64,000 nucleotides of DNA. Origin: Lingula anatina. Its lineage: Eukaryota > Animalia > Brachiopoda. Under the pieces are notes generated by a model. It made no database searches, was not told the origin of the DNA, and saw nothing but the letters and a program-made list of their open reading frames with translations. The DNA is taken from positions 13,802,651 through 13,866,650 of the forward strand of contig CM120647.1 of the NCBI GenBank assembly GCA_051362555.1. Reading direction: 5' to 3'. The translations under genes were made by a program, and so were the position numbers. Shown piece by piece: positions 221 to 63,639 of the stretch (position 1 is its first letter; each line of letters opens with the position of its first letter).

Positions 221-8646
<8,426 letters not shown>

Positions 8647-26797: not shown

Positions 26798-26838
<41 letters not shown>

Positions 26839-29668: not shown

Positions 29669-29725
<57 letters not shown>

Positions 29726-31895: not shown

Positions 31896-34800
31896 CTAGC
31901 AGAAGTGAACGTAGTCCCCGTTCGGTAAAACAGATGGCAGTTTATACCTGGGGTTGGTCAAGAGAAAGTAAAGTTCAGGGAGTTTGGTCCTCACCAGCTT
32001 CTTTGTACACAATTCCCACTCGTCGGAAATGGTCTTGCATCTTTTCCTCTGTGCTCCAAGGATGGACGTGAGGCCCCAGTAAAAGAATTCCGTAAGAAGA
32101 CATTCAAAATCACAGGTTGGATCTCCAAAGTGATACAGGCCAGTGCAGTTTGGATATCTGAAAATTGTGTTGAGAACAAAATCATCGAAATTATCAAAAC
32201 GATGTTTTGTGAGAATTTATTTAAATCAGGAATTGTGAATATCGTAGTGTTCTGTTTGATTGTGTCGCCATGGGTAAATTGTACTTTTTTAATTAAAATG
32301 TGTCACGGTTGATTAGCTTTTCGTTTTTCTCTTATTTTTCTAACCTAAGCTTTTGAGAGTGTCATGAATAAACGCATGAGTTTTCATGTCAATGGGACCT
32401 ACAGCACCTGTTTCGTCACGGGATTATGCTTTAAGTACCTCATGAAGGTTAAAAATAATAAAAAAAATAATAAACTTATTCTTCCAAAATATGTTTTTGA
32501 TGTAGTTTGTGCATAGAAGTAATTTGCTTGTCGGTATTCAAATGTTGTGATCAAGTATATGGCCGCTTTCCCAACAGCGGACTAACAAGTCCGCGGATCA
32601 AAGTTTGCCGACCCAGTTGAATGCTTGTTGCGTAATCTCCGCTGGGAATATACATGTATTCAGTGTTTGCGGTATTAGGGGACTTGTATTCATTTTACAG
32701 CGCACAGCGGACGACTCGTGTTGTAGGGCCTACCTAGTACAAGTACCAAAATATGAAACCTGATTTGAGGGAAAATCATTTACCTGAATGTATGATTGAA
32801 TGCAAAGCCACAGTCCTTTATAGCCTTGAGCATAGCCTTGCCCAGAAGAGATGTGTCATTCTGTGCAAACTGTTCAGGGAAAGCATATGTTATGCCAATA
32901 TCTTGGATGAGGTGGAGAATCTCTTCAAGAGATTCGTCGAACTCAGAACTATGTTCCTCTGGTGGATGGATTTCATTGGCCTCCAGGTCTTGGAACATGT
33001 ATTTCCTGAGAGAAAATAAAAAGTTAAATCAAAGCGAAAAGTACCACTGACTTGTTGACATTTGATAAATAACTTTAAGGAATTCATTAGACTTGCTATA
33101 AATCCGCTATGATTATTCTCCTATTTCATAGCGGGACTTCTATTGTATTTTAATGTGTATTTTAAGAGATATCTTGGGACATAAGATTAATCCATAGGTC
33201 AAAGCACATCAGTGCTTGAAAAATTATTTGTAGTGTGTTTTCGCATCCACATACCCTTCCGTTGCTTTCTCGACTTGTTCAATCTTGGCGTTCATTTCCG
33301 CTTGGTCTCTGAAACAGCGACAGTATTTAATTAATTGCTTGCGTCGCTACCTCGTATACATGTAGCACAATACACAATGTGTATGGGCCTGTAGAGCCGT
33401 ATGCTAATCAACTGAATACCAATCCACAACGAAGAGCAATATCCCCTTGAACACTGGCAACTTACATGAATGCGGTATATTTGTTGTCTCTTAATCCGAA
33501 TATAAGGCAATATTCATACTCTCAATAACACGTACAAGAGAGCTCCGGGGGGCAGGTTGTATATATACAGTGTCATTAAACGATGCTTGTTGGAATAATA
33601 ATAATAATACTTTTATTAGGTCAATCTTATTTTTCAACCATGTTTTTAACCTACAGAGACAGGAATACCCTTTTTATCAACATTAACGACCTAGTACAGG
33701 TACTTTAGTATTATCATAACGCTGAACTTTATTCTTCATTTACAATGACAAAAATATCAACCTGAACATGATCAACGTAGCCCTTCGTTTCACCATGTTC
33801 TTGATCACAGCTGGACTATCCACAAGACCGTCACCATTGTTATCCAGGTACTGGGCCATCACTCCAGCAGCATGGATCATCTTAACATCCGGGAATCCAG
33901 CAGTTGCGACAATATACACGCCAAATACGTTGAGATATTTCGCAAAGAACGGTTTCAGTTCGGGAACAGTGCTTGGCAAACGAGAGATTGTTTTGTTGAC
34001 GCAAGGGATGCTGGGATACTTTATAGTGTTTTGGTTCTGCTTTTGGGCCTTGTGCTGGAACAAAAAGATAGAAGAGGGAGGGATGGGGGAGGGGGAGGAG
34101 GAAAGGGAGGAGGGAGAGGAGTGTAGGGCCACTGAAGAAGAGGACCTCGAGTCAAATAAGGGCCTGAATACACTGAAAGAGAAGTAAGAGAAGGGATGGT
34201 TGATTTTGTCGCCTGCAGGTGTGCTGCACTCATAATTGATCTTTCCTGTCGCTGCGCCTGCGCACACTGCCTTTATGTACTGACACCTGTGTCAAAGTAG
34301 ACAAATAAATATATAAATAAACAATAAACAAAATAAAATAAATCAACGATAAGTTAAAAGAATTACATGTACCATAGATACTGTAAACGTTCGTGTCTAT
34401 GATTGGAAATGAAAACAAACTGCTTGTAATTAAAAATGAATAAATAAATGAATAAATAAAAATAAATAAATAAATAAAACTTGTTTTTATTAAAGCTCTT
34501 GCAGACAGGCTGAGCTACGCTTTAACCATTTTTTCTAATAATTCTAACACGTGTCCTCCATTGACCAGTGGCCACGTTCAGTAAAGGGATGTGGATTTTT
34601 AAGTAGGCATGACGTCATAACTCTGCTGACCTCCTGTAGAAGGCATCGGTCGACCAAGTTACAGGCAGTTCCCATGTTGTTTTCATCACAGCTCAATAAA
34701 ACACATTCACGATAATATCAGTCAACTTGAACTTACTGACTCTGACGCTGTGTAAATAATACTAGGCAGGTGCAGTTGCAACCCGGCCGTTTCTCATTTC

Positions 34801-36056
34801 CGTATCAGATACAAATTTTGAAAATTCTTTGGAGTGCCGTTTGTTTTTCTCGATCTGGAGGTTTGGTATGGGTATTGGGGGGGGGGGGGGGGGGAGGGCT
34901 TGGATTGTTGTTTAGTTATCCCTCTTTTCAAATCTTGAGATTCTTGCAAATGTAAAAAAAAATAATAATAATAAAAAAATTAAAAAAAGAACAATCCTAA
35001 CGAGTGAATATTATGTTTAAATTAGTTTAATATATTGATTAAAAATATGGCAAACTCTTACATGTTGTCGTACTTCTTCCCATTGTTGTCACACAGTGGC
35101 GTGTCACCTTTGAAATATGAATTCACGCTGCATATGGTGTTCTCATTGTATCTTGTACAAAAAGGCAGCACTGGGATGGCAAGAGTAGCTGTAAGAAACG
35201 TTGAAAACAAACGTTTACGATCTAATCTTGTTTAGGGCCCCTTTACACTGGACGGCGTTCTTTCTGCGTCCAGCAGTAAGGACCCATTTGAGAGTTAAAA
35301 AATTATAATACTTTACGTGTCGACAACTGGCCGATCATTGAGCATTCATTCTGATACAAAATCAATGCTCCTGTCTCCTTATTAAGACCACAGCGATGCT
35401 AAATTTCATGGTCGCAGAAAGGACGCAGAAAGGACGCCGTCCAGTGTAAAGGGGGTATTATGAACAGATACGATGACACACATCTGGATTGGAGGCGATT
35501 TTTAGCCCTATGGCACTGAATGAGGTGACCGGTGTATCCTGGCTCTGTCCATAGAAATGTCTTAGGCTTCGTTCACATGCAATGTCTATTTTCTAATTTC
35601 TATTTTCTATTTTCGCTATCTTATTATCACGGTCTGTGCCCTGAATATCCCGCCGCGTAATTACTGGCAGCGCGAGCCAGTTACTTATAGTAACTTATAG
35701 TAACTGGCTCGCGCTGCCAGTAATTACGCCGCGGGATATTCAGGCCACAGACCGTGATCATAAGACATACCGCAAATAGAAAATAGAATTTAGAAAATAG
35801 ACATTGCATGTGAACGAAGCCTAAGTGTGAGACCTGAACGTCGGCTTGACTTTAATATTACAAGAAAAATGATTTGCCTATAATCTTTAAAGAGTTAATT
35901 GAGATGCTTTTGAAAAGTATACTGCACTATTTTGAGGCGAATCAAGGAATATCGATAGGAATAGAGTAAACCAACTTTTTAAACCTCGTGATACTCACCA
36001 TCAAACAACAGCAGTGATAGTACTGAACACTTCCAAATTTTCAAATTCCCCGACAT
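31896..36056 (-). CDS. Secreted Kazal-domain plus EExxH zincin-like protein (paralogue B), about 415 aa, 6 exons
   Basis: Minus-strand exons 36056-35999, 35188-35062, 34286-33762, 33308-33255, 33005-32784, 32157-31896, all GT-AG and phase-consistent. Signal peptide MSGNLKIWKCSVLSLLLFDATLA; six-Cys Kazal-like CTRY..CSV..PLCDNNGKKYDNMCQYIKAVC..YEC; Ser/Pro linker; core FFAKYLNVFGV, HAAGVMAQYLDNNGDGLVD, FDESLEEILHL, CDFECLLTEFFYWGLTSILGAQ, LPSVLPNGDY. Confidence 0.88.
35235..35457. mobile_element. PIF/Harbinger-like MITE with TTA target-site duplication
   Basis: tta|gggcccctttacactggacggcgttctttctgcgtcc ... ggacgcagaaaggacgccgtccagtgtaaagggggta|tta. Confidence 0.85.
35565..35821. mobile_element. 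Foldback MITE forming a near-perfect hairpin with about 120 bp arms (Harbinger-like)
   Basis: tta|ggcttcgttcacatgcaatgtc...cgcgagccagttac-ttatagtaacttata-gtaactggctcgcg...gacattgcatgtgaacgaagcc|taa. Confidence 0.9.
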
Positions 36057-38050
36057 CTTGTGAGAACCCTGTCTGCCAGTGTTAAGCACAGAGCGTGTGT
36101 ACTTGCTTATTATAACTGTTGGCTTTCAAAATTGTTTTCCTCTTGATGATTGTTATAATGACAACTTGCGTACACTACTCTGTCTGCAATAAATGGCAGC
36201 TGGGAACAAAACATCTTAAATCCACCAACGTGCTTCTTGATTAAAAACCTTCCGCGCGAGGTCAACGAGACCCTGTTAAAGTGCACGTTATTGGTAGAGA
36301 TTATGTTATGTTTCCCTTCTGTATCAGCAGGCTCGCAGGAAGGATTGCAGTAATCTTGTATGGAAAGGAAGTCACGTCAGAAATTCCTTTTTATGCAGGG
36401 TATTATACTCATACGGTTTATTTAAACATTTGGCATCATACCCTTAATATCCGTTTTCTGGTTTGAACTTTACTGAAGCTGTGTTGGCCGCGTTTCTCAA
36501 GTATGAAGAACGTGGATAAATGCAATCGTTGATAAAGTCCGTCTCTCTGGGTTTGACCTTGACTCATTTATTTATAAAAGCACGGTTTAGATAATATTTA
36601 TGGCATATGGTGACTAGCACACATAAAACCCTATTGAATGGTTCGCTGAATGGTAATACCAATAAATCATAACACGCCACATGATGTGGGTTTAAAAAAG
36701 GAGTGGGTAAGCAACAATATTTAGGAGGAAAGGAAGAAGCCCGTTAAATCTATTATAGTACATTTAAGGGGGGTATTAGGTGAGTAGCTATAGCTGACAT
36801 CCGATGTATTTTAAATGCACAGTAAAATGGGGGTGGGTATTATATGGCCCAGTAAATGGATTATATGTAATAAACCTTATTTTCAAATTTGAGATGAGGA
36901 GAGCTGAGATATGCAGTTCCACATTGCAAATATTATTTTGTGTGAAACAATTGTGTTTGCATGCTAAGAGGAACAAAATGGCAATTAAGCTTCACCTTCA
37001 TGTACCTTCTCACTCAACATACTTCCGGTTTTGAAGTTCATCGCCAACGGGAGGGGGGGGACTCTGGAAAAAGAGTATGTACTACATTAGAATTACAAAA
37101 GTGTTGTTGCCTGCAAATTCGCTGCATCCACTTACGCTCAAACTCTTGTATATTATTTTAAAATAAGTTAACACTACATCATGTCCACGAGCATTTGACT
37201 TGGTTAACTACAATAACATCTATCCAGATATTTACGGTTCTTACCTTTTTAAATATTAATAAATATTGGTGTTCCTCTGCATATTTCTATTTCCAATAAA
37301 TTCCAATAAACAAATATCATGCTTTCCTATTCTCACAAGTCTAAAAATCTTCCCAGCCGTACACAGGAATAAGGGCAATCGTCTTATCAGTATGGTCTAT
37401 CTAATCAATGGGACACACGACTGGCACAGATGTGTCACGAAAAAGAAATGGAAATTTCGTCTAACGCACTCGGTTAGAAAAAATATAATTGCCAAAGTTC
37501 TCACCTCATATAGGGCATTCGACGCAAAAGGCCTAGTTCATCTCAGAAAAAGTAAGTAAATTACAAGTACTGGAAAGTCCCGTTCTTATTTTAGTCTTAG
37601 TGTAAAAGCTAATAGAAATGATTTATTTTAATAATCATATCTGTTGATATTGATTTGTAAATATGTCCAATGTCTACGAAAAATGTTTAGGAACAAATAT
37701 ATGTATCATCCTGGTTTAAGTCAGATAAAGCACTCGACGCGAAGCTTTATGCGAAATGGAGCAGATAATTGTTCCGAACTCATTTCGCTCGTACTTTGAG
37801 ATAATCTCCGCGATTCATCTATAATCCGTGCATGTTGTGACCTTGTGCGCGAAATGATAAAACCGAACAGATAGTTCCACCAAAATTCACTGGGGATTTT
37901 TGATGCCAACGGCTGTATATATATAACCTAAAATGAACAATGAAAATTATCAGCGCCGAGGAAGGGAATAAAGTGGTTTCGAAAAGGCTTAGCTTTGAGA
38001 CAATAACGCCAGCGACCATCAATTATATTGCGTTATTTTTTGCTGTAGAG

Positions 38051-41000
38051 ATGATGTTAACACATTTATTTCATTGGAAGGGCGTAGTGATGGTACTCTG
38101 TTTGGTCCATGGTGAGTACTGACTATTTGCAGAAGGTATTCTCGCTTAAAAGACAGATTATTTAGATTGCCTGTATTGCATCTGCATTTTTGGGGTAAAT
38201 CCTTTTTTATAGGTGTTTCAAAAATTGGTTTTGTAAACGTCGACATAATATTTTCTTTTTTACAATATTCCGCATTTTTACTGAACCACTTCTTGGCTAC
38301 AAAGTCAAGTCATCACCTGGGGTATCATACCATTCTACAAAAAGACATGACTAAAATGGCATAACGATTATATTTTTCTTCAGCTTGAAATTTATTACTG
38401 TCTGGTAGAAAACATATCAATCCAAGTGTATATCAAAAATATTATAAATACAGCATTTAGTTGACATACCACTAGTGTATTTCTAAATTATGCATTTTTC
38501 TTTTAAATTTCAAACTTTAACTAAAATTTTCATGGAATTCCAATGGTATTCCCATGCAGGCATAATGCGAGCAATGAAAAAACCTATGGCAACTTTCTAG
38601 CGACTGGGATTGCTTAAAGGTTGCTAAAAGGTTGTAAGCGCAGTGTGACCAAAGCTTCTGATAAATAAATATGCGTTCCTGCTCGTGCCCCTGCAGCCGT
38701 ATCCATGTACGGTCGAGTTCCAGTGTAATGCTAGCTTTCAGTACCTCATACGACAACAGGGCTCCGTATCTCGAAAGGTTCGCTATGTTGCGCACGTGCG
38801 CAAGCGTCTCGATTCCATAACAGATTCTATTTCGAGATACGGGGATATGGAATCGAGACACGTGCGCAACATAGCGACCCTTTCGAGATACGGAGCCCAG
38901 GGCTGTATCCTCTTCAGGGGGTTTAGTTAGGAACGTCTTCAACCAGTTTGAATCAGAGCCAAAATATGCCAGGAATATTATAAACGAAGTGTTGCTCAGT
39001 ATTAAAAAAGAAGACTTAACATTGCTGTTCTTCCATTTCCATCAATCAGCAAGGGCAGCTGAGAAGACGGCGGCGACATCCATGGTAAAAGCAGAGGAAC
39101 ACAATTTCCCTACTTTGTCCCCCGATCCCGTTCGTTTCCTGTGGCCACTCAGAACCCTTTTCTTCCCAACCAAACACAAATCAAAGAAGAAGAATAAATA
39201 TTGTCTTAACACTAGAGACCCCATCTCACCAAAAACCTTGTTGTCTTTAATCAAAAGAAAACCAAAAAAGAAGAACAAAAAGTGCCTGGACAAGACAATA
39301 TCGCCTGTACCAGATACCTTACCAGAGCTGAAGACGTTCTTCGTGAAATACCTCAACGTATTTGGCGTGAATATAGTCGCCACTGCCGGTGTCCCGGATG
39401 TTAAGATGATCCATGCTGCCGGAGTGATGGCCCAGTACCTGGATAACGATGGTGACGGTTGTGTGGATAGTCCAGCTGTGATCAAGAACATGGTGGAGCG
39501 TAGATCTACTATGATCATGTTTAGGTTTGTGTTTTCTGTTATTTCTTTTATATTGGGGGCGTTCATATCCAACTTTTAAAACAGGGTGAATCGAATCGAT
39601 TAATGGTCATGTGCATACGATTATTTTCGTCTTTTTCGTATTATTTCCTATTTTACTATAATTTATATGAATAATAGTTCAAATAACACGTGATGTCTCT
39701 TTTTTTCTTCTTTCCTTTTTTTTTGGTTTACTGCATTCAAGCTCAAAACTTTGGTGTGTTTTTTTGTTTGAAATGGAAAACAAAAACCGTGTTGTTTAGC
39801 TATTTTAGATGTAAATAATTTTATAGAAATTTCAATTAAGTGAATCCTTTTTGAAGAATTTTCAAAATTTTCATGTTTGTTTTTATGTAGAGACGAGGCT
39901 GAGTTGGAAGAGCGTGCCGACGAGATTGATGAACTTCTTGACGAGATAATTGGGTAAATATTTAAACATTTAATCCATATAAAATTGTCTTGTTTCTGAT
40001 TATCCTCATGTACCCTTGAGCATTAGGGTTTTAATGTTTTTAATTCGACTCTTTGTTAGGACTAGAAAAGCACTCCGAGAGCGCAGACCTCCGCCAAGGC
40101 AGCAACTTGTAATTATTATTGATAATTGATTGATTATTGATCCGGATCACCACCGAAAACCTATCATCTCTTCCTTGGCCCACTTCTGACAGTTCCTAAA
40201 AATTTCATCAAAATCGGTCCATAGCGTATTGAGTTGCGTTGGTGACGGCAAACAGACAAACAAACAGACAAACAGGGGTGAAAACATAACCGCCTTGGCG
40301 GAGGTAGTAATTGCCATGCCATCTCGTACAAGGACGGGCGGGGAGGGGGATGGCGAAGGAGTTGGGGAGGGGAGAAGAATGGGTTCAGGCGGGAAGGAGG
40401 GCGACGAGTGGGAATTCAGTCATAAGTAGATCCCAGGTTAATAAACTGAGGCTCTGTGCTACATCGAACCCACCCTCATTAGGTTCTAGCGACGATTTCG
40501 CTGCAAAATAATTGTCCTCATTCTAGATTTTGATCCACTTACGTCGCTTGTCTGTTTCATAGGGAGATTTCCCTGGTAATAGATCTCTATCACGGGGAGA
40601 TTTCCCTGGTAACGACTTTGTATCACAGGGAGCTCCCCTGGTAACAACTTTGTATCACAGGAAGCTCCCCCTGGTAACAACTTTAATTTGCATCACAGGG
40701 AGCTCTCCTGGTAACAACTTTGCATCACAGGTGCCCTGGCTTCACCTGTTCACGATTCCAACTCAGTTACGTCACGCTAACCCTTATTTATTTGAATTGA
40801 GGGCGGATTCGATGTTACACCTTGTTATAATGCATATAGAAACTACCTTTCACGACAACAGTGATTATCACCCAATTTGTTCCGCAGAAAAATCAAATTC
40901 CAAGCTCTTTTTGGAGATGAAACTCACCCTCCAGAGGAGAGTAGCCCTGACTTTGACGCCACTCTGGAAGAGACACTGCACCTTGTCCAAGAAGCTGGAT

Positions 41001-42277
41001 TAGTGAATGCTTTCCCGAGACAGTTTGCTGTTGACGAAGACTCACTACTGGGTCGGGCTTTGGAAAAAGCTATCGATGACTGTGGTAATGCTTTTGACGG
41101 CACCTTTAGGTAAATATTCTGCATTGGGTAAATGAATGGTCTGGGTTTGCTTTTATTTAAATGATATCAATGATGGTTTAATACGGCAAAATATATAATT
41201 TTTTTTGTCTTTTGTGTAATGATGATAAAAGGCAAATTGTCTCTAAACAAAATAAGCTAGTTTACAATCTATACAGTAGGCCTATATATATGTTTGTTTG
41301 TTTGTTTGTTTTCTCTTATGTTATGCAAAATTATTCTTTCCACCCCAGACGTATTCACCATATTTTTGCTTGTTAAATTCACATTCCTTTCGAAAACGAC
41401 AATCTTGGCGAAGAATGTTGTTTCGACCTTCATATCTAAGTCACGCGGATTAGATTCATGTACGTTTTCTAATCTAGTTAAGTATGACGAAATGTGCGGT
41501 AATGCCGTCATCTGGCATGTTCAGATCTCCATTAAAAAACATTTCACTCGATTGTTTCTACATCAAACCTTCAATTAAACTGATCTTTAGTCGCTGAATC
41601 AAGTCTCTAGATTTAACACAGACTGCTTTTATTGTGTTACGTAATATTTATCCTATATTAATGTTACAGATGTTCCAACAGACACATAATCCAAAAACAA
41701 AGCAATTTCCCTCTAATCATGCGCTTGACTGCAAGTTTTCTAGAAAATATTAAACTGGCAAAGGGATAATTAATCTCATGAAAAAAAGCAAATATCATAC
41801 ATGATAAAGCCAATGTTTTTTCCGATATATATTTTTTCAAGTCAGCCAAAAAGTGACTATTTTTATGAAAATCAAACGTGTTATTTCGCAAGAACATGTA
41901 TAAAAGTCTTAAGGTTGCAAGATCAATATTACCGTGATAAATTAATGTATTTGGCAATCAAACACTTTAAGCGATTATTTAAAGGTACTTTTCTTGCATT
42001 TAGGTATCCTGACTGTGAAGGCGTCTTCCACTATGATGATGACACGTGTGAATACAAATGTCTTCTCACGGAATTCCTATACTGGGGACTCACGTCAATT
42101 CTCGGCGCACAGGATTACCCCGGGCGATGTGACGAAATCTCGGATGAGTGGGAGCTGTGCACGAAAGATTTAGTAAAGGAAAAACTACCAGAACTTTACT
42201 CTCTCTTGACAAGAAGAATTGGAAAGTACAGGTTGCCTACAATTTTGCCGAACGGAAAGTATGGAAAGTTCTGTTGA
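38051..42277 (+). CDS. Secreted EExxH zincin-like protein (paralogue A), about 364 aa, 5 exons
   Basis: Exons 38051-38111, 39050-39524, 39891-39953, 40888-41109, 42004-42277, phase-consistent. Signal peptide MMLTHLFHWKGVVMVLCLVHARA; Lys-rich repeats; FFVKYLNVFGV, QYLDNDGDGCVD, FDATLEETLHL, YDDDTCEYKCLLTEFLYWGLTSILGAQ, LPTILPNGKY. Intron positions in the core match paralogue B. Confidence 0.9.
38757..38900. mobile_element. Palindromic MITE in intron 1 of paralogue A
   Basis: cagggctccgtatctcgaaaggttcgctatgttgcgcacgtg ... cacgtgcgcaacatagcgaccctttcgagatacggagcccag. Confidence 0.8.
40062..40310 (-). mobile_element. HINE-like element, reverse copy of the 19888-20282 family
   Basis: ctagaaaagcactccgagagcgcagacctccgccaaggc ... 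gtgaaaacataaccgccttggcggaggta. Absent from the paralogous intron of pseudogene C (about 59930). Confidence 0.8.
40555..40740 (+). repeat. Minisatellite, about 32 bp x 5-6
   Basis: Unit atcacagggagctcccctggtaacaactttgt; shorter homologous array at about 60320-60440. Confidence 0.85.
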
Positions 42278-45670: not shown

Positions 45671-45734
45671 ACAATAATGCTGTTTATATAGAATTTAGAT
45701 ACCAAAATGTTGTTCATAGGTGTCGTTGTGTTTC

Positions 45735-45792
<58 letters not shown>

Positions 45793-48700: not shown

Positions 48701-48829
48701 CCATTTCGTACAGAAAAAACGATGTTTTTGCACACCTCGTCCACGCACACACATTGTGAGTATAATTAAATTGTCACCAGTGAATTGCAGTAGGTGAGCT
48801 TGCACAGCAGTCACAATACATGGGTGCGC

Positions 48830-50630: not shown

Positions 50631-53543
50631 CTGTCTGAATCTTGTTTCAGTTGATAGTCCAGTAAACGAACGGCTTAGGTTGGAAAAAACTGTTAACCAA
50701 GGTTTCTCAATAGAATCCGGTCCAGTTTTGGACTAACAGCATCCAGATAATATCCCACCGGAATCCACCCATGGCAAAATGCCAAAAATCTAAAATGGCC
50801 GCCAATGCATAGGGGAGGGTGTTTAAGTGGGGATATCATGGTAACTAGGTAACTAGAAAGTTGTGATAAGTATCATATCTAATATTCAAAGGCATGGCCA
50901 TTCATTTGAAAAAAGTTTAGAAGTCAACAGAGGTAAAGGTCAATCTCAAAAAAAGGACCAAAATAGCTTAAAATACAGCATCAACTTTCTGTATTCTTTC
51001 AAAATGAACTTTTTATGAGTTTTAGAGCTCCTATTGAGAACTGCATACAAGAGACCACCTTTGTGAATATTGTATTTAACTGACCAAGGGGTAAAATAAT
51101 GTATGTCAAGGTCAAATCTGCATCTTAAAAGATACAAAAGTAAGCTTTGTGATCCCCAGAACACATGCCAAGCTAGTTAATTTAATCATTTGATGGCCAA
51201 ATTTCTTCAGATGAAAATTTTGAAATAAAAGGGCAATACTTTTTTAACGAAGGGAAGCCAAGGTAATGTATGTCTGTCAAGGTCAATCTCAACAGTGGCT
51301 TGAAATGTAACTACATTTTGGGGGACTTTGGTTTTCTAGAAATGTATACTTTAAAACATGTTTATGTCATCTTTTAGTGACAAATTGTCACAAACACATG
51401 ACGAGATAAAATATTCTTGGATATTCATATTATGATCCTTTGAATGTTTATACACTGTACATGCACAATGTAGTTGCCCAAGGTTGCCGACGTGGCAACC
51501 AATCGACATTTGTTTAGGACCCCAGGAAACTCTAATCAGGAAATGGAACAAAATAGGAACAAACATTTCTAGGTTCCGAAAATTTCGCTTTGACTATAAT
51601 GTTACTTTTTTAGCTCGACGAAAATGCCCCGATGGAGCCATCGACATTTTTCACATAACTCAAAACCTATCTACCCGGTATACCTATGAGATCTCTCGTC
51701 CAACAGTTTAGGCATGAATTAACACCTACACAGTGCGTGTTGATCGTGACCAAAATGAATGCATGATCAGTACTAGAGTGCGTGTTCTAAGAAAGAGAAG
51801 AATTACATCAGCTGTGTTATGTCATAATAATTCACCTGGATATCCTCATATCCAGGAACTGCGGAAATTTGCCCAATTTTCCAACATGATTATCTCGTGT
51901 TTGGTCCTGTTTGTGCTTCCTTATCGCAGGGCTTAAGTGCAGGTCCTGATTTGCAGCAACAACAACATTACAAAAGAGAGCAGCTGCAGTCGCAGCTGGT
52001 AGAACTCGCTGGCTCAAGCAGAAGCGTGTTGCTGAACAGAGTCATGCACTCTTGCGTGTACGTGTACCTGCTCGTAGTCACTTTAGCTGCCTTGAAACCC
52101 GCGATTCGCAGACCACAACCGTAACAACTCAGACAACTGAAGACCCGCATCGAAATTTGGAAGATGTGTTATAATGGTTTTATTTATGAATGATGATTCA
52201 GAAAGAATTAGTCAAAAGAAAAGTAATATAGACGCTAAGTATGAGCAAGATATCTTCAATCATATTAATTTAGGTAATATAAAAATAGTCCAAATTAGAC
52301 ACAGAGTAGTGTACCTGTAGACTGTAATTAGTGACCATTGCAGAAAACCAAAGAAATTCCATTCGAATGGCATATAGCGATTGTTACTTAATTGACCCTG
52401 AATTAAGAATATGGGAAGAGGAAATTATGCTTAAAGTATGTATCAAAACAAAATGGAGATCTGAGAATAGATAGAAATGATTTGCTCAGAATATATAGTT
52501 TGCCCCTTTAAAGGAAATCTTTGACCATGGTATACCGGTACGTAAAAAAATATGACGTGTACAATGAAAACTGGATCATCATATGAGGCAGATAAAAGAG
52601 AAGCCCACTCTTAGAGTTGCCCATTATTCATTCGTTACGGTTCCAATGCCGCTCCATCTGAAGCGCCTTTATCTTCTGAGTCAGCGTTAATCTACTTAGA
52701 CTATAACTTTATTCAGAAGGTGTACTTTGTTAGTACCTCTCTGCCAAGAATTCAATAAACCCTATTTGACTGGATTGAAGGAACACCAGGAGTTTGTTGT
52801 TCTTTGCCTGCTTTATTACCCCCGTCTCATGAATCCGATAAAAAAGAAAAAGAAAGAGAGAAAAAACCCGTGAAAGATGCACTCGCAATAAAGTGCATCG
52901 CAGAGTCGTCTCCCAGTATATTGCGAAAATTAAGGGGAACATGCAAAGTACTGCCCGGGCAGCGTCAACTACCACTGGTGGGACGTCATGACAATGTGGC
53001 GCAGAATGTTCAAACGAGAAACTCCCTGTAGCGACAAATTGATGCTTGAGACAGGAGTCTCTGCACTGAGACGATAAGTTTCCCTTAATGAAAATTGTGC
53101 TGTTTAAAGTGAGTTGATTCTGACGTTTTATTTGTTTTTGTTTTGTTTTTTTTTTGAAAAAAAAAAAGAAACGGTTGTTGTCTCTTTAGGCTGGTTGAAA
53201 AATTAGAAAACATAATCTGTACAAAGGGGTGATATAATGAGGTAATTTTGGCTTTCATAATTATAATTACAAGAAATTACAATGTGATAAATACGTAAGT
53301 ATATAAAATATATATATATATAAAATATATAAAATAAAGAGAAAAAATCCTAACAATATCGTTAATCTCTTTGAAACTTATTCCCCGTTTTCACATCGCG
53401 TGTTTACGTAGGTCGCTCGTGGTGCATGTTGTAGAAGAGCGCTCAATTTTTTCCATGGGGATCCACTCACATGAAAACTTGATAACAGATTTGCTAATGT
53501 TTATGACTCCGAGTTACTTTAAATGTTTGACAAGACTGATGTT

Positions 53544-54625
53544 ATAATGATAATAATAATAATAATAATATTTATTTCTTAAAACCGCACTACACTACCG
53601 TCTCAGTGCTGTTTACAGATAAAATTATCAGGATTACAACTAATTATATAGATAATAAAAGCTAAGGTAAAAAACAATTAAGATTATTAATGCTTGTGAA
53701 AATAGTAATGATCTGAACAATAAAACTTTTTTTCTGATAAAATGAGAAAATAATAATTAAAATACTGTTCAAATAAGAATGTATTTAAGTCTTTTTTAAA
53801 AAACCTCAACACTATCAATAGTCCGAATGTGTGAGGGTAGTTGATTCCATAAAATGGGTGCTGCAATTGAAAATGCCCTGTGGCCGAAGGTTTTGGTTGT
53901 TTTTTTTTATTATCATTTCTGGAAAAACAAAGAGTGGAGGTGGATCTGGTAGATCTGGTGAGCCTGGGTGTACTTGGATGTAGCATCGAGTTAAAATATG
54001 AGTGGCATTCACCTCTGGTGATTTTAAAAACAAACAACAGTAATTTAAAAACAATTCTCTGTCGTACAGGAAGCCAATGTAGTTCGAATAAAATGGGTGA
54101 AATGTTTGATCTGTGAGGGTTTTGGTTAGTAGTCATGCTGCAGCATTTTGGACAGATTGCAGTTTTTCAATTTGGTAGGTAGGAAGACCATACAGTAGGC
54201 TGTTTCCGTAGTCAAGATGTGCAGTTACAAAGGCATGGACAAGTCTCTCAATTTGACTTTTATCAAGAATATGGGACAGGTTGGAATTTTTTAAGACCAT
54301 AGAAAGCGACTTTGCATTTTTTACTGATGTCGGCAGCCATATCGCACCTATTATCAAAAATTACTCCAAGGGTTTTAACCCCATCTTTTACCGTGACTGT
54401 ACTGTTTCCGATTTCTAATAGTTCTAGTTTTTCTGCGTCCTTAGAAAACGCGAGGTAAAGTGATCTACTTCTGTTTGGCATCATTGAAAACAAGTGAATT
54501 GGCATTAAGCCATTGACTCAACTGAATAATTAATACATTTCTGGATAGATGGTATTACATCTGATGGCCTGTCGCAAACAATATAAATTTGTGAGTCATC
54601 TGCATAGAGCATTAGGTTAATGTTG
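53544..54625 (-). mobile_element. 5'-truncated, frameshifted non-LTR retrotransposon (L2/Crack-like), RT C-terminus and 3' tail
   Basis: Motifs YADDSQIY, KTLGVIFD, LVHAFVTAHLDYGNSLLYGLP, ISPILFELHWLPVRQRIVFK, RAFSIAAPILWNQLP across shifting frames; 3' end aaataaata(tta)n. Confidence 0.9.
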
Positions 54626-54870
54626 TCGGTCACCCATATGATTTTGGGCTGTTGTTGATCTTTATTTATTTATTTATTTATTTATTTATTTTTTACACTG
54701 CCAAGTATTGATTTACAACGATAATTTGGATTGACTCTTGAAACTCGTCAATCTGTTTCGTTTTCAAAATTCGTTATCATGCAACAAAACGGCGTCACCT
54801 CACTCAAGGTCAATAATGGTATAGTAAAATCAAACATTGCGCTAATTTGCAAAGAAACAGCTTTTTGTAG

Positions 54871-55213
54871 GCTAGGGTTCGGGAGTGTGACATTTACAAA
54901 TCCCGGTGCGACGGGACGTCTTGGGCCGACTTCAGTTGGTAAACATCACGACGGTCAAGACCATCAGGGCAAGGTGACCTTGGTGAACGGGACACAGTTC
55001 TTTACCATCCCTGTCCCCGGTCTCTACTGGATACGTGCTGCTGGTAGACTAGTAATTTGGGTAAGATTAAATTTTAAATTAAAGAGGTTTTATGTACTCA
55101 TACGTATATTTATAATAATAATAATAATCATCATCAGTCTACCTGCAGGGGCCAATAATGAAACTACTGCAGCCGCGGCGCCGTTGCGGCTGGGGCGTTC
55201 AATTTAGATGCAG
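54871..55213 (+). pseudogene. Two-exon fragment of an ALK/LTK-type glycine-rich (TNF-like) extracellular domain
   Basis: Exon 54871-55043 encodes FTNPGATGRLGPT..QDHQGKVTLVNGTQFFTIPVPGLYWIRAAG. Exon 55149-55213 encodes RGAVAAGAFNLDAG only after a frameshift. No further exons were found. Confidence 0.7.
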
Positions 55214-55877
55214 GTTAATTAAAACGGATCGTGAACACAGGCTAAGATAATAGACAAAACAAACGCAAACACCGACTACTCGGTCGATTGGATGAGCTCG
55301 TTGTTGGACAGCCGTTGATTTGTCGCAACGGCATTATAATGCTGTCAATATATGATGTCCTTTGTCTTCCTGTACTTTTCCGAGCTTATACTCATTATCT
55401 ACGAACAGGTGAATGTAAAAACAATTTTTACACTGGTTACCCTAAGTTTAACATACAATTACTTGCTCTACTGATCTGATAATAATTTACTTATTTCTTC
55501 ACATTTTTGGAGGCTTAATTTATACTCAATTAACTTTTCAACATTAGTTTACATACGCAGAATTAAAGCAAGTGGATTATACTTACTAAGGTCAGACTTC
55601 TAACTTACCTTAGTTGAACATTTTTTATTAGATATCGTGCGGGTAGTCACTACATGTAAGAGAGCATTCAAAACAGCTGATCCTTGGACTTAATATGGCT
55701 GACCATGTTAAAAGCGATACTGCTAATCCCCTAATGGACCCCCCGCCTCCCCACGCGCCATTGCTGCAGGGGCGTAGCAATTAAGGCGGGGAGACCATCA
55801 GGGAATCAAGCAGCTTGCTTTAAAGCGGGGTCGGCCATGTTTAGTCGGCGGATCAGTTAGTCCGCAGAACATCTGTT

Positions 55878-56760
55878 CTAAGTGCGTTTTAAGTTGGTTG
55901 TGCTACAACTGAATAACCCTTTGAACTGTGATCTGAATTGTGAACCACTAATCAAAAATATCAGTAAATTGAAAGCATGGTATGACAGCTCAGCAATTCT
56001 ACTTACATAATGGAGATAGAGCAAAGACCAATCAGTGGAACCCGCCGATACATATGCCGTTTCAACCATGTTAACGAACGCTGTCGTACACATAATTAGA
56101 AAACAAAGAGACGAAGCCAACAAAGAAAAAGTGCTAATTATTTCTTTTGCCTTTTTCTCACCCCCTCTTCCAGATGTGAGTTCTTTTCGAATTTTCCTTT
56201 GAGCCCAGATGAAATGAATTATCTTTGTGTTCATTCCGATAATGGTGAGTAACATCATGGCTCTTCCGGTGATGCGTATTGTTGTTACAATCCCTAAGCG
56301 CCTTTGCCAGTCCTTGTATTCATATGCGGCTAACGCACACGGGGCGTCGGTGTAGATTAAGCTTGCAAAGGCCACCGCTCCACAAGCTACTGTTGCGGCA
56401 AAAATCATCTGCAAAAATGAAAGAATTTTCAGCTTCAGAAATTGGTTCATAATATAATAAAAGTTATAGTAGCATTATGTGAGCTGGTAGATATATCTAA
56501 ATCAGTAAAATCATAGTCTGAGGGTTGAGGCCGTGCATTGTGAAAAGAAAATAATTAATTAACTTACACTGTTGGTCAAAAAGTTTTCCCAACTTCAATT
56601 ACATGTGCTTTTGCTTACAAATGAGCACCTCAGAGCTGTCAATCGTTTCAGACATAGCTTTTTATTCCAGATATCATATTTAACATGACTGATGGTAGGC
56701 CTACATACTGGTACTCCAAAAAGAGACTTTATTATAAAACACACTAATTTAACTAAACGC

Positions 56761-56827
<67 letters not shown>

Positions 56828-58381
56828 CTGGCACCCAAAAAGGGTTAGACGGATTCATAGACAAACTGGCGCCTTCAGATAAAATTACTAAATGAAAAAG
56901 CTAAGATATCATTCCTGGTATATACTTACCGCTTTGAAAAAAGTCTTTCTGGCGCATATGAAACTGGTCTTGAACGGAAAACAGACAAAAAGAAACCTGT
57001 CAAGTGTTATGACGAAGATGACAACTGCGGCCCAGTCTGATGTGAAAATTTCAGAAATGGCTACCAAGTTGCAGAAGACAACTCTTACCCGGGAAAAACT
57101 ATCTCCCTGGTTCGAATTGCTCACTATCGCCAGCACTAACTCACTCAACGCCCGAAGACAGTGTGCTATACCAAGAGTGCAAGTCAAGAAGGTCTTGGTT
57201 TCTGATCTACCTCTGAGTCTCCTGTCACCGATCAGAACAACAACAACGAGAAGAATGTTGCTGGAAAGGGACAGGGGGAAAAGAGCATAAACAGTGTATA
57301 TGTATATATTAAGCATCCTGTCTAATTTTTCTTGGTCCCAATGGAATCTCTTGATCAACCAGCTGATGCATTCTAGTGGGTTGTTTTTTACTACCATTTC
57401 CAGGGCACGTGGTTTGATTTTATCCACGTCCATTGGACATAGGCGCTTTGCTAATTCCTGCGTATTATTTAAAATTTCCACCGGAACTTCATCCAGTCGG
57501 AAAGGACAAAAAAGAACTTCGTTGCGATTTATACCAAAATCATTTGATAAATCCTGAATATCTTGTCGGATGCAAATATACAGTTCATTAGTTGTCTTTT
57601 CATCTCCTAGTTTATTTCTGGCCAAACATTGTTCTTTGTTCACCTCGTGTAGCACAGTAGCCGCAAAAAGCTCCTCTGACAGCTCGACTATCCCGCAGTA
57701 TTCAGAATATGTGCTGTCAGAGAACCAAAAGTCAGCCAATCGAAAACTGTCTGTCATTCCGCTTGAAACCCTCGGTGAGCAATAGAAATACCTGTCTTTG
57801 ATAGCGGTTTTCAAATCTGATGAAGAAAAATCTTGATTAACATGAACTTCTTGGATTTGTGGCGATGCTTTGATGCACACATGCGTGCTTTCGGTGGATG
57901 TGCCCGTAGCTGTAAAGTTTTCACTTTGAGTAAGGTTATGGTGATTATATGAAGTATTTTTCTTCTCATTGTCGGTTTCGTAGACGATTTGAGACATGCG
58001 CTCCAGGCCATCTTGTATCAAACCGTCGACCGTTTTCCTAAAGTCAACAAATGTACTTCTTTTTGCGCTGTTCGTCAGCTGAGTGCAATTTTCTTGTTCA
58101 ACGCCCATTAAGACGACAGTCCTGCGCCTCGTGTCCAACATATTGGTGAAATCAAAGAGACACGATGAGTCCATCGTTTTCAGGGCGACTTCTATAACGT
58201 CGATTGGCATTCCTAGTGTTGCAGTCAGCTGGTCGTACAATTGCCTCGTAAGGTTGAGGTGACAAGCGGAGAGGACTTGAATTTTTCCCACTCGTCGCGA
58301 AATAGGATTTTCACCAAACAGATTGTGAATTTGAAACAATGACAGTTGCATAATGCAAATGGGAATAATGTAAAACACCAT
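55878..58381 (-). CDS. Orphan class A (rhodopsin-like, peptide-receptor-like) GPCR with long N-terminal extracellular region
   Basis: Exons 58381 (or 58471)-56930 and 56408-55878, phase 0 intron. TM1 ..LSLSSNILLVVVVL, TM3 VITLDRFLFVCFPFK, TM5 LLTIIGMNTKII, TM6 LLASSLCFLIMC, TM7 YHAFNLLIFLISGSQFR. Confidence 0.85.
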
Positions 58382-58937
58382 GACTTTGACTTGGCGTTCG
58401 ATGTAACAGTAGTTTCCAATGCAATAAATAAAATAATATGCGAATCGTGCCTTATTTATATGGCATGACATGAATTAATGTAAGGATGCCTGTCATTGGG
58501 AAATACTATCAGCCACTCATAAGCCTCAAGACAAAAAGATTCATATGCATGATGATAAACATGAACATTCCTTTTGTCTTTCCCATGATTAAATGTTTGG
58601 GTACAAGTTAATCTATTTAATAATAATAATAATAATAATAATAATGATAATAATAATAATAATAATGAAGATGATGATGTACATGTAAGTCTTGAAAACG
58701 AGCTACACATACACAAATCTAATGGCACTGAGGTGACTAAATGGCTCAAAGTCTTTAGTATCTGTTTGCTTTGATATAATCAACAATGGGTTAAATGCAT
58801 GTTTGTGACTTACTGCCTTATCTGAGCTTCTTATTCCCATTCACTGCAACTGTTATCGAAATATCTTTCTAATTCAATTTATCCAGTTAAAAAATCACGG
58901 AAAAGAAATTATAGCAATCCCTAAAACATTTTTTTAA

Positions 58938-59181
58938 CCTTCAAGTGACCGTGTGGGGTCATTAACGACCCCAGCCATATGATTTAATGTGCCATCTCTT
59001 TTTATTTTTTATCTGAACTTTTTATTCCTAGTATGAGTTTGTCAGTCTACTAATCTTACACACTTTCACAGTTTTTTTTGCAATCAACCAATTAGTGTGG
59101 CGTATACATCACAAACTCTTGTGGGGTCAATTATGACCCCGAAGAGAAGCATTTCAGTCAGTAAAATAGCTTGGTCGAGGG
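58938..59181. mobile_element. piggyBac-like MITE
   Basis: ttaa|ccttc..gacc..ggggtc ... gacccc..ggtcgaggg|ttaa: TTAA on both flanks, imperfect TIRs. Confidence 0.55.
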
Positions 59182-59755
59182 TTAAGAGCAGTATATCAAA
59201 ATTTTCTGAACAAAATTTGGTTCTTAAATGGTTATTTCGTCAGAGTAAAAAGGTCAGTGTGGTGTCTTACCAAATATCACAGGTCGTTATTGCCACCATA
59301 ACGATCAGAGTCCATTTGAACGGTTGATCGAACAGCACATGCTGCACTTTGCTCAAGCACATTTGGCTACTGCCTCTGTTACAGCCGTCGCTGGACATTA
59401 TCCCAGCTGTACCTGTGAAATGAAAACACACATGCATGTGTACGATTCTCTACTGTTTTCGAGTTTTTAATTTTCATTGTCTATACATACCCAGGGATGT
59501 TGTGTGGCCATGGCGGTATGCCGATCACTGAAGCCAGATAGGGTCACTTTATTCGGTTTTAAGGGTATTTTAGGATGAAAAGATAGTATTATTTCTCGGT
59601 ATGTACATGTATGTTGAATAGCTAACACGATTTTAGAAAAGACAACAAGGGACAAGAGTACAGAAAAAAAAAGTTCCCAAACACACCGTTTTTATAGAAA
59701 TCTCAATTAAGTGAATTCTTTTTGAAGCACCTTTTTCACGTTTGGTTTGATGTAG

Positions 59756-61300
59756 AGACGAGGCGGAGTTGGAAAAGCGTGCCGACGAGATTGATGAACT
59801 CCTTGGCACCATAATCGGGTAAATGTTAAAAGGCCTACCCATTGAAACATTTAATCCAAATAAAAAATGTCTTGTTTCTGATTATCGTCATGTAGTCTTA
59901 AAAATTAAGATTTTAATGATTTTATTTGAACTCTGTGTTAAAACAATTACCATGTCATATCGTACAAGTTTATGCTGTGAGGGCGGGTAGGGGGATGGCG
60001 AGGGGGTTAGCTGTGAGGGCGGGTAGGGGGATGGCGAGGGGGTTAGCTGTGAGGGGAGAAGAAGGGGGTTATGGAGGGGAGAAAAAGGGGAGGGGCGGGA
60101 AGAAGGGCGGTAAGTATAGTAGGAGGGATGAGGGCGATGGAAGGGAGATGAGTGGTATTTCACTCATAAGTAGATCCTGGTTTAAGAAACTGAGGATCTG
60201 TGTTACCTGGAATCCGCCCTCATTAGGTTCATATACAAATTTCGATTCTATCGACGATTCCGGTGCACAATAACTACTGTAGCCTCATTCTAGATTTTGA
60301 TTCACTTACGTCGCTAGTCTCTTTCACAGGGAGATTTCCTGGTAACAGATCTGAATACAGGGAGCTCCTCCTGGTAGCGACTCTGTATCACAGCTGCTCC
60401 CCCTAATAACGACTTTGTATTACAGGTGCCCTGGTTACACCTGTCCTAGATTTCGACTCAATAACGTTACTCTAACTCTTATCTATTTGAAACTTATGGA
60501 GGGAGGATTCAGTGTTACAGGGTCCTACATTATTTTAATTTCTATTAGACGTAATGCATAGAAAACACCATTCACGATAATATTGATTATCACCCAATTT
60601 GCTCCGCTGAAAAATCAAATTCCAAAAGCTTTTTGGAGATGAATTTATTTATTAATTTCCTGTGCTGCACCAAGTCACAAATGTTGCTACAAAATTGAAG
60701 TTTTTTTTTAGCCCCGACTTTGACGCTACTCTGGAAGGGACACTGCACCTTGTCCAAGAGGCTGGATTAGTGAATGCTTTCCCTAGACAATTTGCTGTGG
60801 ACGAGGACTCGCTTCTGGACGGGCTTTGGAAAAGGCTATCGATGACAGTGGTTATGCTTTTGACGGAACCTTTAGGTAAATCTTTTGTATTTGGTAAATG
60901 AATGGTCTGGTTTTGCTTTTATTTAAAGGATATCAATGATATTTTAATACAGCGAAATATATATATATTTTTTTGTCTTATGTGTAATGATGATAAAAGG
61001 CACATCGCTTAATCAGTTTATAGCTTCAACACAGGCTGCTTTTATTGTGTTGCATAGTAGTTGTCCTAAAATTATTTTACAGACATATTCCAACAAACAC
61101 ATGATCCAAAATCAAGCAATTTCCCTTTTATCATGCGATTGGCTACGTTTCCAGAAATATGAAATTCGCAAAGGGAAAATTTACCTCATGAAAAAAGTAT
61201 CATACATGATAAAGCCATTGTCTTTCCAAGAATTTTCTTCACGTCAGCCAAAAAATGACTATTTTTTTATGAAAGTATACAGGTCTTAAAGTTCTATTAA
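59756..61300 (+). pseudogene. Pseudogene of the EExxH zincin-like family (paralogue C, partial duplicate of A)
   Basis: Exon 59756-59818 is intact. The next acceptor is mutated cag>ctg (about 60607); 66-bp insertion at 60644; LEETLH>LEGTLH; 1-bp deletion near 60818. The last coding exon is deleted, with intron sequence joined to the stop/3'UTR at about 61290. Confidence 0.9.
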
Positions 61301-63578
61301 CTTTGAGCGCGTTTGTTTTATCATGATCGACTATACATTTGTATTAAACGCACCAGTTTGACACATTACTACTTAGGAGCGTATCACATACGCAGTTGAA
61401 CCATTTTGTGAATATGATGGGCACAGAAAGAGAAATAAAAAATAGTTTTAAAAACGCCTAAGTGCCTGCGTGATCATGACCTACTCAAGTCTTGAATCAG
61501 GTAGAATTGATCATTTATCTGGGCCAATATGTTAGTTATTGTTCACTGTTCGCCTGGGTACTCGCTAGGGTGCTAGCTAGGGGTGAATTTATTTATTAAT
61601 TTCCTGTGCTGCACCAAGTCACAAATGTTGCTACAAAATTGAAGTTTTTTTTTTTTTTTCTTGTTATCTCATTATTGTATTGCAGATCTCTATAGTCGCC
61701 AAACATATGTCATAAACTCGTTTACATCCTGTACTTGAGTGGCTGCTTTCAAACATCGGTTTCACTTCTTGGTACACATGCGGACATATGCTACTTGTAT
61801 ACCTTTATGGATTGAAAGTATTTCTTGCAGGTTGTTTCAATAATTCGACAGCACCTGCGCATAAAAATTATGGAATTTTGCATACAAAGAGCAGATGTTA
61901 TGGTGCGTAAACTGAGCTGTGCGCTACATCATTGTTGCTCTGCGCCAGAATGGTGTACAGAATGAGTGTCAGAGCAACGTAAAAGCTACATGTAGCTTGT
62001 TAAATATACCTTGTGATGGAGTCGCTTGTACTAGCTCTGACGAACAGCGACAATCTGAGGGCGTTCTTCTTCAAAATTTTGCCTGGGGCGCTTCCATATT
62101 TGGAAGTCACACGTCACAGCTGTGTCCGCCTGGATCCATATTTGGAAGTCATAAGTCTCGTACGTCACAGGTTCAGCCGCCTGGAGCTGCCTTTCCCGCC
62201 TTGCGCTGAAGTTATCTCGTGCAGACGAGACAAGATGCCTGAAGTTTGAATTGAAAATATATTGCAGTCGAAGGTCAGTGCCACAATACAAGCAACATTC
62301 TGCTTTACAAACTGATTTTGGTGTAGCCATTGCGCAGCCCTTATAGTGGTATCATACAGTGTAGCTGTCAAATTTGGCACACGGCAAGCACGTGTATTGT
62401 GCACGGGTATATCTCAGGACTTAATGTTCTTTGATTAGCGAAAAATACAAAAACATTGGATATATCTTTTCTTTTCGAAGAATGTTATTTTATTTATTCA
62501 CTTTACATCTTAAATACAGCAAATAAAATTAAATAAAGCAGAATTAAATCTGTTTTACGTTTCATTTTGGTCTGATGACATTCAACTGCAGATTCACTGC
62601 GGAGCAGTTCTATTTGATTGACGGAAGTGTAACATGGCTGCTGTTCGCTAGAGCCGGTATTGCTGATATGGGTTATATATGAAATCAAGATCGAGCTGGC
62701 AATACCGGAATCTAGAACCTAGGGTTGAATGGTGCAAAACAGATACACATTGCCAGGTAGATTATTCTGTCGCAACGAACGCCCCGCGCAGTGCTAAGGA
62801 TGTATGCCCAGCCTGAATTAATGAGGGGCAAATTGTCACAAAGACGCGCTTTTCAAGATCCAATGTTGTCAATGTTTAAGCAGGTTACAGTATTTTAGAA
62901 TAATTGCGATAACCACCACTTTGGTAGTAAAATCATATTTATTATTTGTAATTCCTTAAAATTGGGGTTGGGGTGGGGTCCTTTTGGTGCTCAAGTAAAG
63001 GAGAAATGGTAAAATGGCATCGGTAAATGCAAAGGCATTTAATAAGTGTACTCTGACAATTCATTTATTTTCAAAACCATACATAAAGACAATAATTTTG
63101 GAGTTTTAATATAACACTGTCCTCCGTGTCTTATTCATTGATATAATGGACACATAGCATTGATCTGTGTCATGATAAATGGACGAATGCACGAAAAAGA
63201 GCACAGTGCAAAAGCTTTTTTTAGATAAACCACTCCTCGCGAAACTTTATTTGCTAATACAGCAGAAAATTTTATTTGACTTATTTCGCTTGTACTTTGC
63301 GATAATCTCCGCGATTCATCTATACCCTCGTGCGTGTTGTGATTCTGCACGCGAAATGATTGAGCCGAACAGATTGTTTGGTCAAAATTCCCTTTCATTA
63401 AGATGTTTATGAACAATGGGTGCATTATTGATGCCAACGATCATACACATGACACCTAAAATGCTCAGCAGATATTATTTTGATACTAAGGAAGTGAACA
63501 AAACGGTCCCAAATAAGCTGATCTTTGCAACATTGTAAAGAGCGATCGGCGGTTAACATACGTTATTTTGCAAAGGAG

Positions 63579-63639
63579 ATGATGTTAACACATTTATTAC
63601 TTTGGAAGAGTGCTCTAATTGCAGTTTCTCTGAGCCATG
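63579..63639 (+). CDS. First (signal peptide) exon of a probable fourth EExxH family paralogue (D); continues beyond the window
   Basis: MMLTHLLLWKSALIAVSLSH G|gtgagt, 61 nt like exon 1 of paralogue A. Upstream 63220-63580 is homologous to 37720-38050. Confidence 0.75.

Follow-up and report, generated by a model that had tools for sequence, protein, structure and literature searches.

A head-to-head pair of EExxH genes

Within a window of 64,000 nucleotides from the brachiopod Lingula anatina (assembly GCA_051362555.1, contig CM120647.1, positions 13,802,651 to 13,866,650 of the forward strand; coordinates below count from the first letter of this window), we analyzed two intron-bearing genes, A and B, which lie head to head with 2 kb between them and share a protein core carrying the motif EExxH. 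An earlier note, made from the letters alone, had quoted a series of core motifs, all of which were recovered at their places in both genes.

31896..36056, minus strand: gene B, six exons (36056-35999, 35188-35062, 34286-33762, 33308-33255, 33005-32784, 32157-31896), encoding in order a hydrophobic leader, a Kazal-like domain, a Ser/Pro linker and the EExxH core
33827..33844, minus strand: DNNGDG of B, a loop of the Dx[DN]xDG type
32912..32926, minus strand: EEILH of B (E282, E283, H286), predicted active-site helix motif, aligned to HExxH
32076..32093, minus strand: TEFFYW of B, with the predicted third-ligand Glu352 and with Trp356 at the position of the sister family's second-shell Glu
38051..42277, plus strand: gene A, five exons (38051-38111, 39050-39524, 39891-39953, 40888-41109, 42004-42277), encoding in order a hydrophobic leader, a Lys-rich linker and the EExxH core
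39442..39459, plus strand: DNDGDG of A, a loop of the Dx[DN]xDG type
40967..40981, plus strand: EETLH of A, predicted active-site helix motif
42068..42085, plus strand: TEFLYW of A, the counterpart of TEFFYW in B

The spliced translation of B is identical to a 415-aa Lingula anatina protein (P0001 = XP_013384868/9, LOC106154878). RNA reads were placed on positions 31000-34068; run X4 yielded 145 reads from about 6% of the run, with GT-AG joints at all three core introns of B supported by 17, 9 and 9 reads and a read strand in agreement with a minus-strand gene. These joints substantiated, for B, the earlier claim of real spliced animal genes. Runs X1, X7 and X9 gave 1, 4 and 4 reads on the B region, low counts that we did not read as non-expression, the reads being only 95-99% alike. 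The B transcript was also seen to extend to position 31000 at least, toward a DEG/ENaC gene that lies tail to tail with it.

Gene A is likewise intact, with GT-AG boundaries at every intron and a single open frame of 364 aa; the expression evidence covers B only, and the A protein had no match among the database matches listed. Three phase-2 introns occupy identical core positions in A and B (F|R, x|G, F|R), and both genes have a phase-1 intron downstream of the hydrophobic segment at the N-terminus, as the claim of shared intron positions required. The pair is shown to be under purifying selection (279 core codons, 64% identity; nonsynonymous divergence, dN, 0.26; synonymous divergence, dS, 1.6; dN/dS 0.16), and its GC content at third codon positions (GC3), 0.49-0.54, falls inside the range of its neighbors. 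Judged from hydrophobicity only, rather than from a signal-peptide predictor, the leader of both proteins likely directs secretion. The N-terminal Kazal-like domain of B, overlooked in the earlier note, is weak (PF07648, E 0.005, 17.3 bits, below the cut-off of 22.8), as is the match of the B N-terminus to a Kazal inhibitor in the PDB (E 0.25). Contamination was ruled out by the introns, the spliced reads and the animal flanking genes; the B locus has the features of domestication, being integrated and intron-bearing, with spliced reads and animal-type flanks.

A marine family outside current annotation

The core, about 260 aa long, has no Pfam match in B, and 105 aligned family members match Pfam only via accessory domains; ATLF (PF07737) and Peptidase_M90 (PF06167) are absent among the 25 listed of the 31 Pfam families matched by these members at E<=1. 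NCBIfam gave no match on the core of 12 proteins, and no PDB sequence match was obtained for the B core, for the family profile or for L162, a planctomycete protein introduced below. Relatives of the core numbered 138 proteins by word search, 596 by profile search and 1659 as cluster representatives (50% identity, E<=0.001), some of the last being distant relatives. Their record titles are mostly marine, and the marine bacterial relatives are 35-46% identical, consistent with the undescribed family with marine bacterial kin that had been proposed. Literature searches (EExxH with metallopeptidase or zinc, and accessions), with most subscription journals outside their coverage, found no description of the family, and papers on EExxH or EEXXH with zinc or HEXXH concerned only ZIP transporters. 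An EExxH motif in a polymorphic-toxin metallopeptidase, considered as a precedent, was not borne out, with 0 occurrences in the text examined of PMC3482391. The examined part of the PMC4595640 main text makes no mention of horizontal transfer, proteases or Kazal domains, and three motifs were not found in one of its supplements, which may contain no sequences.

Prokaryote genomes yielded 216 confirmed stretches, of which the best 80 were retained; these 80 loci hold 83 domains, 37 from Bacteroidota, 15 from Pseudomonadota and fewer from each of seven other bacterial or archaeal groups. Because prokaryote members carry type IX secretion system (T9SS) tails, RTX repeats, dockerins and, by a crude regular expression, lipobox-like patterns (proteins of 33 of the 83 domains), we consider the family to be exported. 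Tandem domain copies are also found, and fusions of the family domain to M8 and trypsin-like peptidases occur. Neighbor clustering over 160 loci revealed no conserved gene neighbor, the commonest real ones being a sulfatase and a response regulator at 14 loci each. HExxH is the assumed zincin signature, and here an EExxH family of more than 1000 clusters at 50% identity escapes both motif and Pfam annotation.

A zincin-like fold and a motif aligned with HExxH

The model of the B core is confident (predicted local distance difference test, pLDDT, 94; predicted template modeling score, pTM, 0.92) and places the E/E/H residues on helix 125-141 and the third Glu on helix 191-207. Foldseek ranked the Pro-Pro endopeptidases (PPEPs) PPEP-2, PPEP-3 and PPEP-1 (Zmp1) first, none of them significantly. 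An exhaustive structure search returned PPEP-2 at Z 8.1 (root-mean-square deviation 4.7, 155 aligned), PPEP-3 at 7.9, the catalytic domain of anthrax lethal factor (LF) at 6.6, collagenases at 6.4 and 6.2 and MtfA at 5.8, with ranks 1-11 of 48,161 chains being zincin-fold proteins or LF-type domains. Both searches, at moderate scores, agree with the zincin-like fold suggested in the earlier note. Weighing against too firm a structural assignment, Foldseek reached only E 0.07 or worse with template modeling (TM) scores of 0.35-0.40, and a Z of around 8 can arise from a commonly occurring arrangement. These moderate scores are backed by stronger sequence evidence, namely a profile alignment to an HExxH family.

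That family, hereafter the sister family, was found in Planctomycetota (L162:907-1974, L187-L216), where 65 of 251 genomes gave matches at E 0.001, many of these matches being weak. Its members L162 and L181 were found among weak PF07737 matches in planctomycete genomes, and their N-termini resemble those of the EExxH family. L162 matches Pfam M90 (1.5e-5) and ATLF (1.7e-4), both below cut-off; the sister family as a whole stays under Pfam cut-offs and bridges ATLF/M90 and the EExxH family. When 105 sequences of the family were aligned to 32 HExxH proteins with HHalign, the probability was 93.6 (E 2e-7, 210 columns, 21% identity, full-length homology), LEEILH fell on IHEFAH and TEFFYW on AEYFAE, and the HExxH profile scored above 15 bits in 120 of 566 cores versus 0 of 566 reversed ones. 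As read from these alignments, EExxH is a true HExxH variant, as had been inferred for EExLH, and TEF falls, in sequence position, on the third-ligand Glu. A mixed ATLF/M90 alignment proved useless in HHalign (probability 16.6), only the homogeneous L162 family having worked; modeling L162 from its sequence alone gave a poor result (pLDDT 41), which was discarded, and a PF07737 scan of 201 genomes of one phylum gave no match.

Comparison with known systems delineates what is particular to the family. The PPEPs, like the EExxH proteins, are secreted single-domain proteins with an alpha/beta N-domain, an active-site helix and a helical C-domain; in the parts consulted of PMC8610288 and PMC12828418 they carry HExxH, in contrast to EExxH in the Lingula family, and identity is about 10%. 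The Lingula family differs further by an inserted DNxDG loop and Cys loops, and nothing points to Pro-Pro specificity. LF/ATLF and MtfA/Peptidase_M90 share the fold class and, via L162, a sequence link, and ATLF/M90 are the nearest named ESM Atlas clusters (0.81, a lead only), whereas the EExxH family has another metal motif and no toxin delivery domain or sign of a toxin. The sister family, with its secreted-type N-termini, keeps HExxH and E[YF][FW]AE (32/32 for the latter) and is without the DNxDG and TCDYxC insertions.

A predicted Glu-His-Glu site

Gluzincin sites offer the reference. Passages of PMC5668564 give the LF ligands as His686, His690 and Glu735 with Glu687 as base, and an ExxxD carboxylate is described, in part of PMC3356374, as orienting one histidine. 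In the EExxH family, by B numbering, D278, E282, E352 and W356 are kept in about 100%, and E283 and H286 in 99%, of 486 cores without the two-Cys loop discussed below (non-loop cores), the Glu at the first motif position thus standing in practically all of them. EExxH is present in 82 of the 83 prokaryote domains, where a gluzincin would have HExxH. The Glu at the third-ligand position, a matter of sequence position only, occurs in 100% of the non-loop and 94% of the 36 loop-type cores, and that at the general-base position is retained in 36/36 of the latter. The second-shell ExxxD/E of gluzincins reads ExxxW in about 100% of the 486 and 83% of 35 loop-type cores, compared with Glu at i+4 in 32/32 members of the sister family. 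The family resembles gluzincins yet fails these two defining features, and is therefore set apart as a variant, not a member. A further type of EExxH domain, more distantly related (RDASxEEIxHxxH; 17 domains, in P0012, P0143, P0144, L015, L099 and others), often lies next to, or is fused with, the first type and RTX tails; its second-shell position holds S 8, A 3, D 3 and I 2 times in 16 of the 17 domains, and never Glu.

The histidine that the ExxxD carboxylate orients is the first one. Loss of the second-shell carboxylate would be the co-change expected if this His had become a carboxylate ligand. The Dx[DN]xDG pattern, a calcium-binding-loop motif, is conserved, as had been noticed (D210 100%, D/N212 100%, D/N214 100%, G215 93% of the 486 cores), and the DNxDG loop, seven inserted residues that the sister family lacks, is a putative calcium-binding site.

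A and B are genuine Lingula genes, of a family related by descent to HExxH gluzincins. On these grounds we give about even odds to the reading as a whole, in which the two likely encode secreted hydrolases that depend on a metal and likely stem from a microbial-eukaryote branch of the family, not from a bacterium directly. Their products are most likely endopeptidases with a single metal predicted to be bound via Glu-His-Glu: E282, H286 and E352 would hold the metal and E283 would act as general base, as in gluzincins, while Trp356 would replace the His-orienting carboxylate, as expected without that His. Two carboxylates, together with the invariant Asp278 one turn earlier, would favor a harder metal (Mn or Fe) over Zn, and the DNxDG loop and disulfides would lend the protein extracellular stability. 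ZIP8 and ZIP14 show the same replacement of His by Glu in HEXXH, and the EEXXH of ZIP8 is reported, in the part of PMC10457451 consulted, to be necessary for Mn transport; these are unrelated membrane transporters and serve as an analogy for metal choice only. The two linked replacements, of the first His by Glu and of the second-shell Glu by Trp, are a natural experiment on metal choice in metallopeptidases, one that small secreted members from bacteria make open to direct testing. If the predicted chemistry is true, they would be a natural rewiring of an HExxH zincin center with a matched second-shell change.

Several observations weigh against catalysis, or against reading too much into the conservation. 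The co-change counts as a single event in evolution, or two, and not as hundreds. At 339 and 346, where A and most members have Tyr, B has Phe; the Tyr before the third ligand lies at -7 in the sister family and at -6, within an insertion, in the EExxH family (96% of non-loop cores), where A has Tyr and B has Phe. One of the two B positions may be that of the oxyanion Tyr. Because PPEPs need this Tyr (part of PMC12828418), B may be a weak or non-catalytic copy. Furthermore, 6 of the 36 loop-type cores (P0164, P0207, P0225, P0272 and cluster mates) read CExxQ, with the base-position and third Glu kept; these are possible pseudo-enzymes or Cys-ligated sites and imply that the metal site can decay.

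Such decay, the loss of both the first His and the second-shell carboxylate, and the absence from B of two usually conserved Tyr residues would suit a non-catalytic zincin-fold protein that holds metal, peptide or glycan without cutting. Dead enzymes usually let catalytic residues drift, whereas E282, E283, H286 and E352 are kept at 99-100% in the 486 cores, which come from many phyla, and loop-type cores keep the general-base position throughout; we regard a pseudo-peptidase as unlikely. Also unlikely, in our judgment, is a metallohydrolase of another bond (an amidase, esterase or deacetylase), possibly with two metals using Asp278. The invariant D278, D210, D341 and E375, carboxylates beyond the gluzincin set, would fit such an enzyme, as would a cleft reshaped by two inserted loops relative to the sister family and the lack of a conserved neighbor gene indicating a substrate, but the nearest solved relatives are peptidases and fusions to other peptidases exist.

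A Cys loop shared with microbial eukaryotes

The earlier note had proposed a domesticated gene taken directly from bacteria. The Lingula proteins have DCGxAFxxTFxYPxCxG in place of the prokaryotic ARGGxF..YPxxAW segment, and this two-Cys loop occurs in 36 of 522 distinct cores. Named carriers are Lingula (two proteins, plus A), Alexandrium margalefii, Triparma (two) and MMETSP transcripts, and a loop-type gene on metagenome contig L156 has a GT-AG intron; the loop is present in 0/80 prokaryote genome loci and 4/80 metagenome loci. B shares 10-16 of 23 loop residues with 27 of 35 loop-type rows, compared with at most 8 in the 486 others. In a FastTree phylogeny of 481 rows, the 30 loop-type rows form one clade (support 97), and a quick IQ-TREE run on 64 rows gave the loop group 98, with one non-loop row (P0216) inside. 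A 48-row tree with six outgroup rows, from which 22 of the 64 rows including P0216 were left out, supported the loop group at 99/96. A, B, their paralogue LOC106155430 and P0004, the last being sister to the Lingula proteins and 51% identical to B, form a clade with support of 97/92 to 100/93 in three trees and 97/63 in a fourth.

The nearest kin of the Lingula genes, judged by these alignments, are thus most likely microbial eukaryotes, which fixes neither donor nor direction. The presence of the loop in Lingula, Alexandrium, Triparma and a contig with an intron weakens the case for a gene taken straight from bacteria, since the nearest kin include dinoflagellate and stramenopile proteins. 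We give about an even chance to lateral entry into an animal stem lineage from a microbial eukaryote, followed by intron gain and duplication, in which the LOC106155430 paralogue would have split off first, then A and B, then C and D (described below). A giant-virus carrier was not found, since viral contigs held no relative in two scans and a viral structure library gave no match at E 0.001. One ESM Atlas lead is a 52-member eukaryotic cluster, mostly Mollusca and 17% ATLF, at 0.84 to P0006, below the reliable range; its motif is not readable and it may belong to the HExxH side.

This eukaryotic grouping has its own weaknesses. A careful IQ-TREE run on the same 64 rows placed the loop group on one side with a support of only 23/65, and with the loop columns removed the group splits in three, so that its monophyly is strong only when those columns are included; monophyly without them was not rejected (p 0.48). 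When the loop is set aside, the best prokaryote-type cores reach 44-46% identity to B compared with an average of 35% for protist-type ones, although faster protist rates may account for the lower value. Loop-type P0006 and P0310, which lie on 2.5-Mb and 551-kb contigs, could be bacterial.

Vertical inheritance of an old eukaryotic gene lost in most animals is, in our estimation, somewhat unlikely. The loop group covers alveolates, stramenopiles and one animal, a rooting that separates prokaryotes from the loop group was not rejected (p 0.65, the constrained tree scoring higher), and P0004, given its modest identity to B, may stem from a distant animal. Such a history would require the gene to have been lost from almost every well-annotated animal, fungus and plant, and none of those is represented among the matches listed; the sole other intron seen, in L156, sits elsewhere in the gene.

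That a marine bacterium passed the gene directly to the brachiopod lineage, as the earlier note had it, seems quite improbable to us: the two-Cys loop matches protist proteins in detail and is absent from 80/80 prokaryote genome loci, and all-column trees put Lingula with loop-type protist proteins, against which stand the prokaryotic majority of homologues, the prokaryote-type best non-animal matches outside the loop, the Lingula clade lying in a polytomy without the loop columns, the two possibly bacterial loop carriers and the lack of any other named animal among the matches listed (120/138; 120/596; 150/1659 without organism names).

Joining the lateral-entry history to the predicted chemistry gives a fuller and rather doubtful proposal, namely an active secreted class of Glu-His-Glu peptidases preferring Mn or Fe, which would have spread among marine bacteria, archaea and protists before passing from a microbial eukaryote into a brachiopod ancestor and there acquiring introns, a Kazal-like module and diversification. 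The genes at this locus belong to a patchy marine gene family fully domesticated in a brachiopod, with nearest kin that are apparently protist. They are a candidate case of transfer from a eukaryote to an animal, a route with less documentation than the one from bacteria to animals.

Other copies and genomic surroundings

The four-copy local expansion described earlier stands in that further copies are indeed seen, but only A and B are intact. The family's local growth is modest, at two intact genes plus a pseudogene and an orphan exon; a different scaffold carries one paralogue, LOC106155430 (47%). Overall, the structural inference of the earlier note holds up well, and the note went too far both in proposing transfer straight from bacteria and in the extent it gave to the expansion.

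59756..61454, plus strand: pseudogene C, a copy of A, with exon 3 at 59756-59818, damaged exon 4 at about 60608-60876 and the 3' flank kept at 61288-61454
63223..63660, plus strand: D, upstream DNA and a first exon (63579-63639) homologous to A

Exon 4 of C has lost its acceptor AG, contains an insertion and a 1-bp deletion (a frameshift) and reads EG in place of EE; exon 5 is deleted, and exons 1-2 were not found within the window. Over 73 codons, C differs from A by dS 0.37 and dN 0.046. An exact 70-bp duplicate at 60640-60709 and 61584-61653 was also observed, one copy of which interrupts exon 4 of C. D consists of a 61-nt first exon with an ATG and a GT donor, within 442 bp that are 67% identical to the first exon and upstream DNA of A; the remainder of D, if any, would lie beyond the window end.

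The flanking genes are of animal type.

About 4000-8646, plus strand: PI3/PI4 kinase exons (PF00454, E 1.7e-12)
25193-30937, plus strand: DEG/ENaC channel gene, tail to tail with B (PF00858 on both ends)
55878-58474, minus strand: open reading frames resembling a G-protein-coupled receptor, one of 521 aa, which has an extended N-terminal region and matches 7tm_1 weakly (E 5e-5), then a second hydrophobic frame

Three long inverted-repeat elements, resembling miniature inverted-repeat transposable elements, lie in introns of B and A (35561-35825, 35238-35454 and 38759-38898). At 53687-54517 on the minus strand, fragments without a Pfam match resemble, by eye, the end of a retrotransposon of the type without long terminal repeats. 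An intronless heme peroxidase of plant, fungal or bacterial type occupies 11903-13027 on the minus strand (PF00141, E 6.5e-28); it has a leader and a GC3 of 0.66, higher than that of its neighbors, and is a further candidate for patchy distribution.

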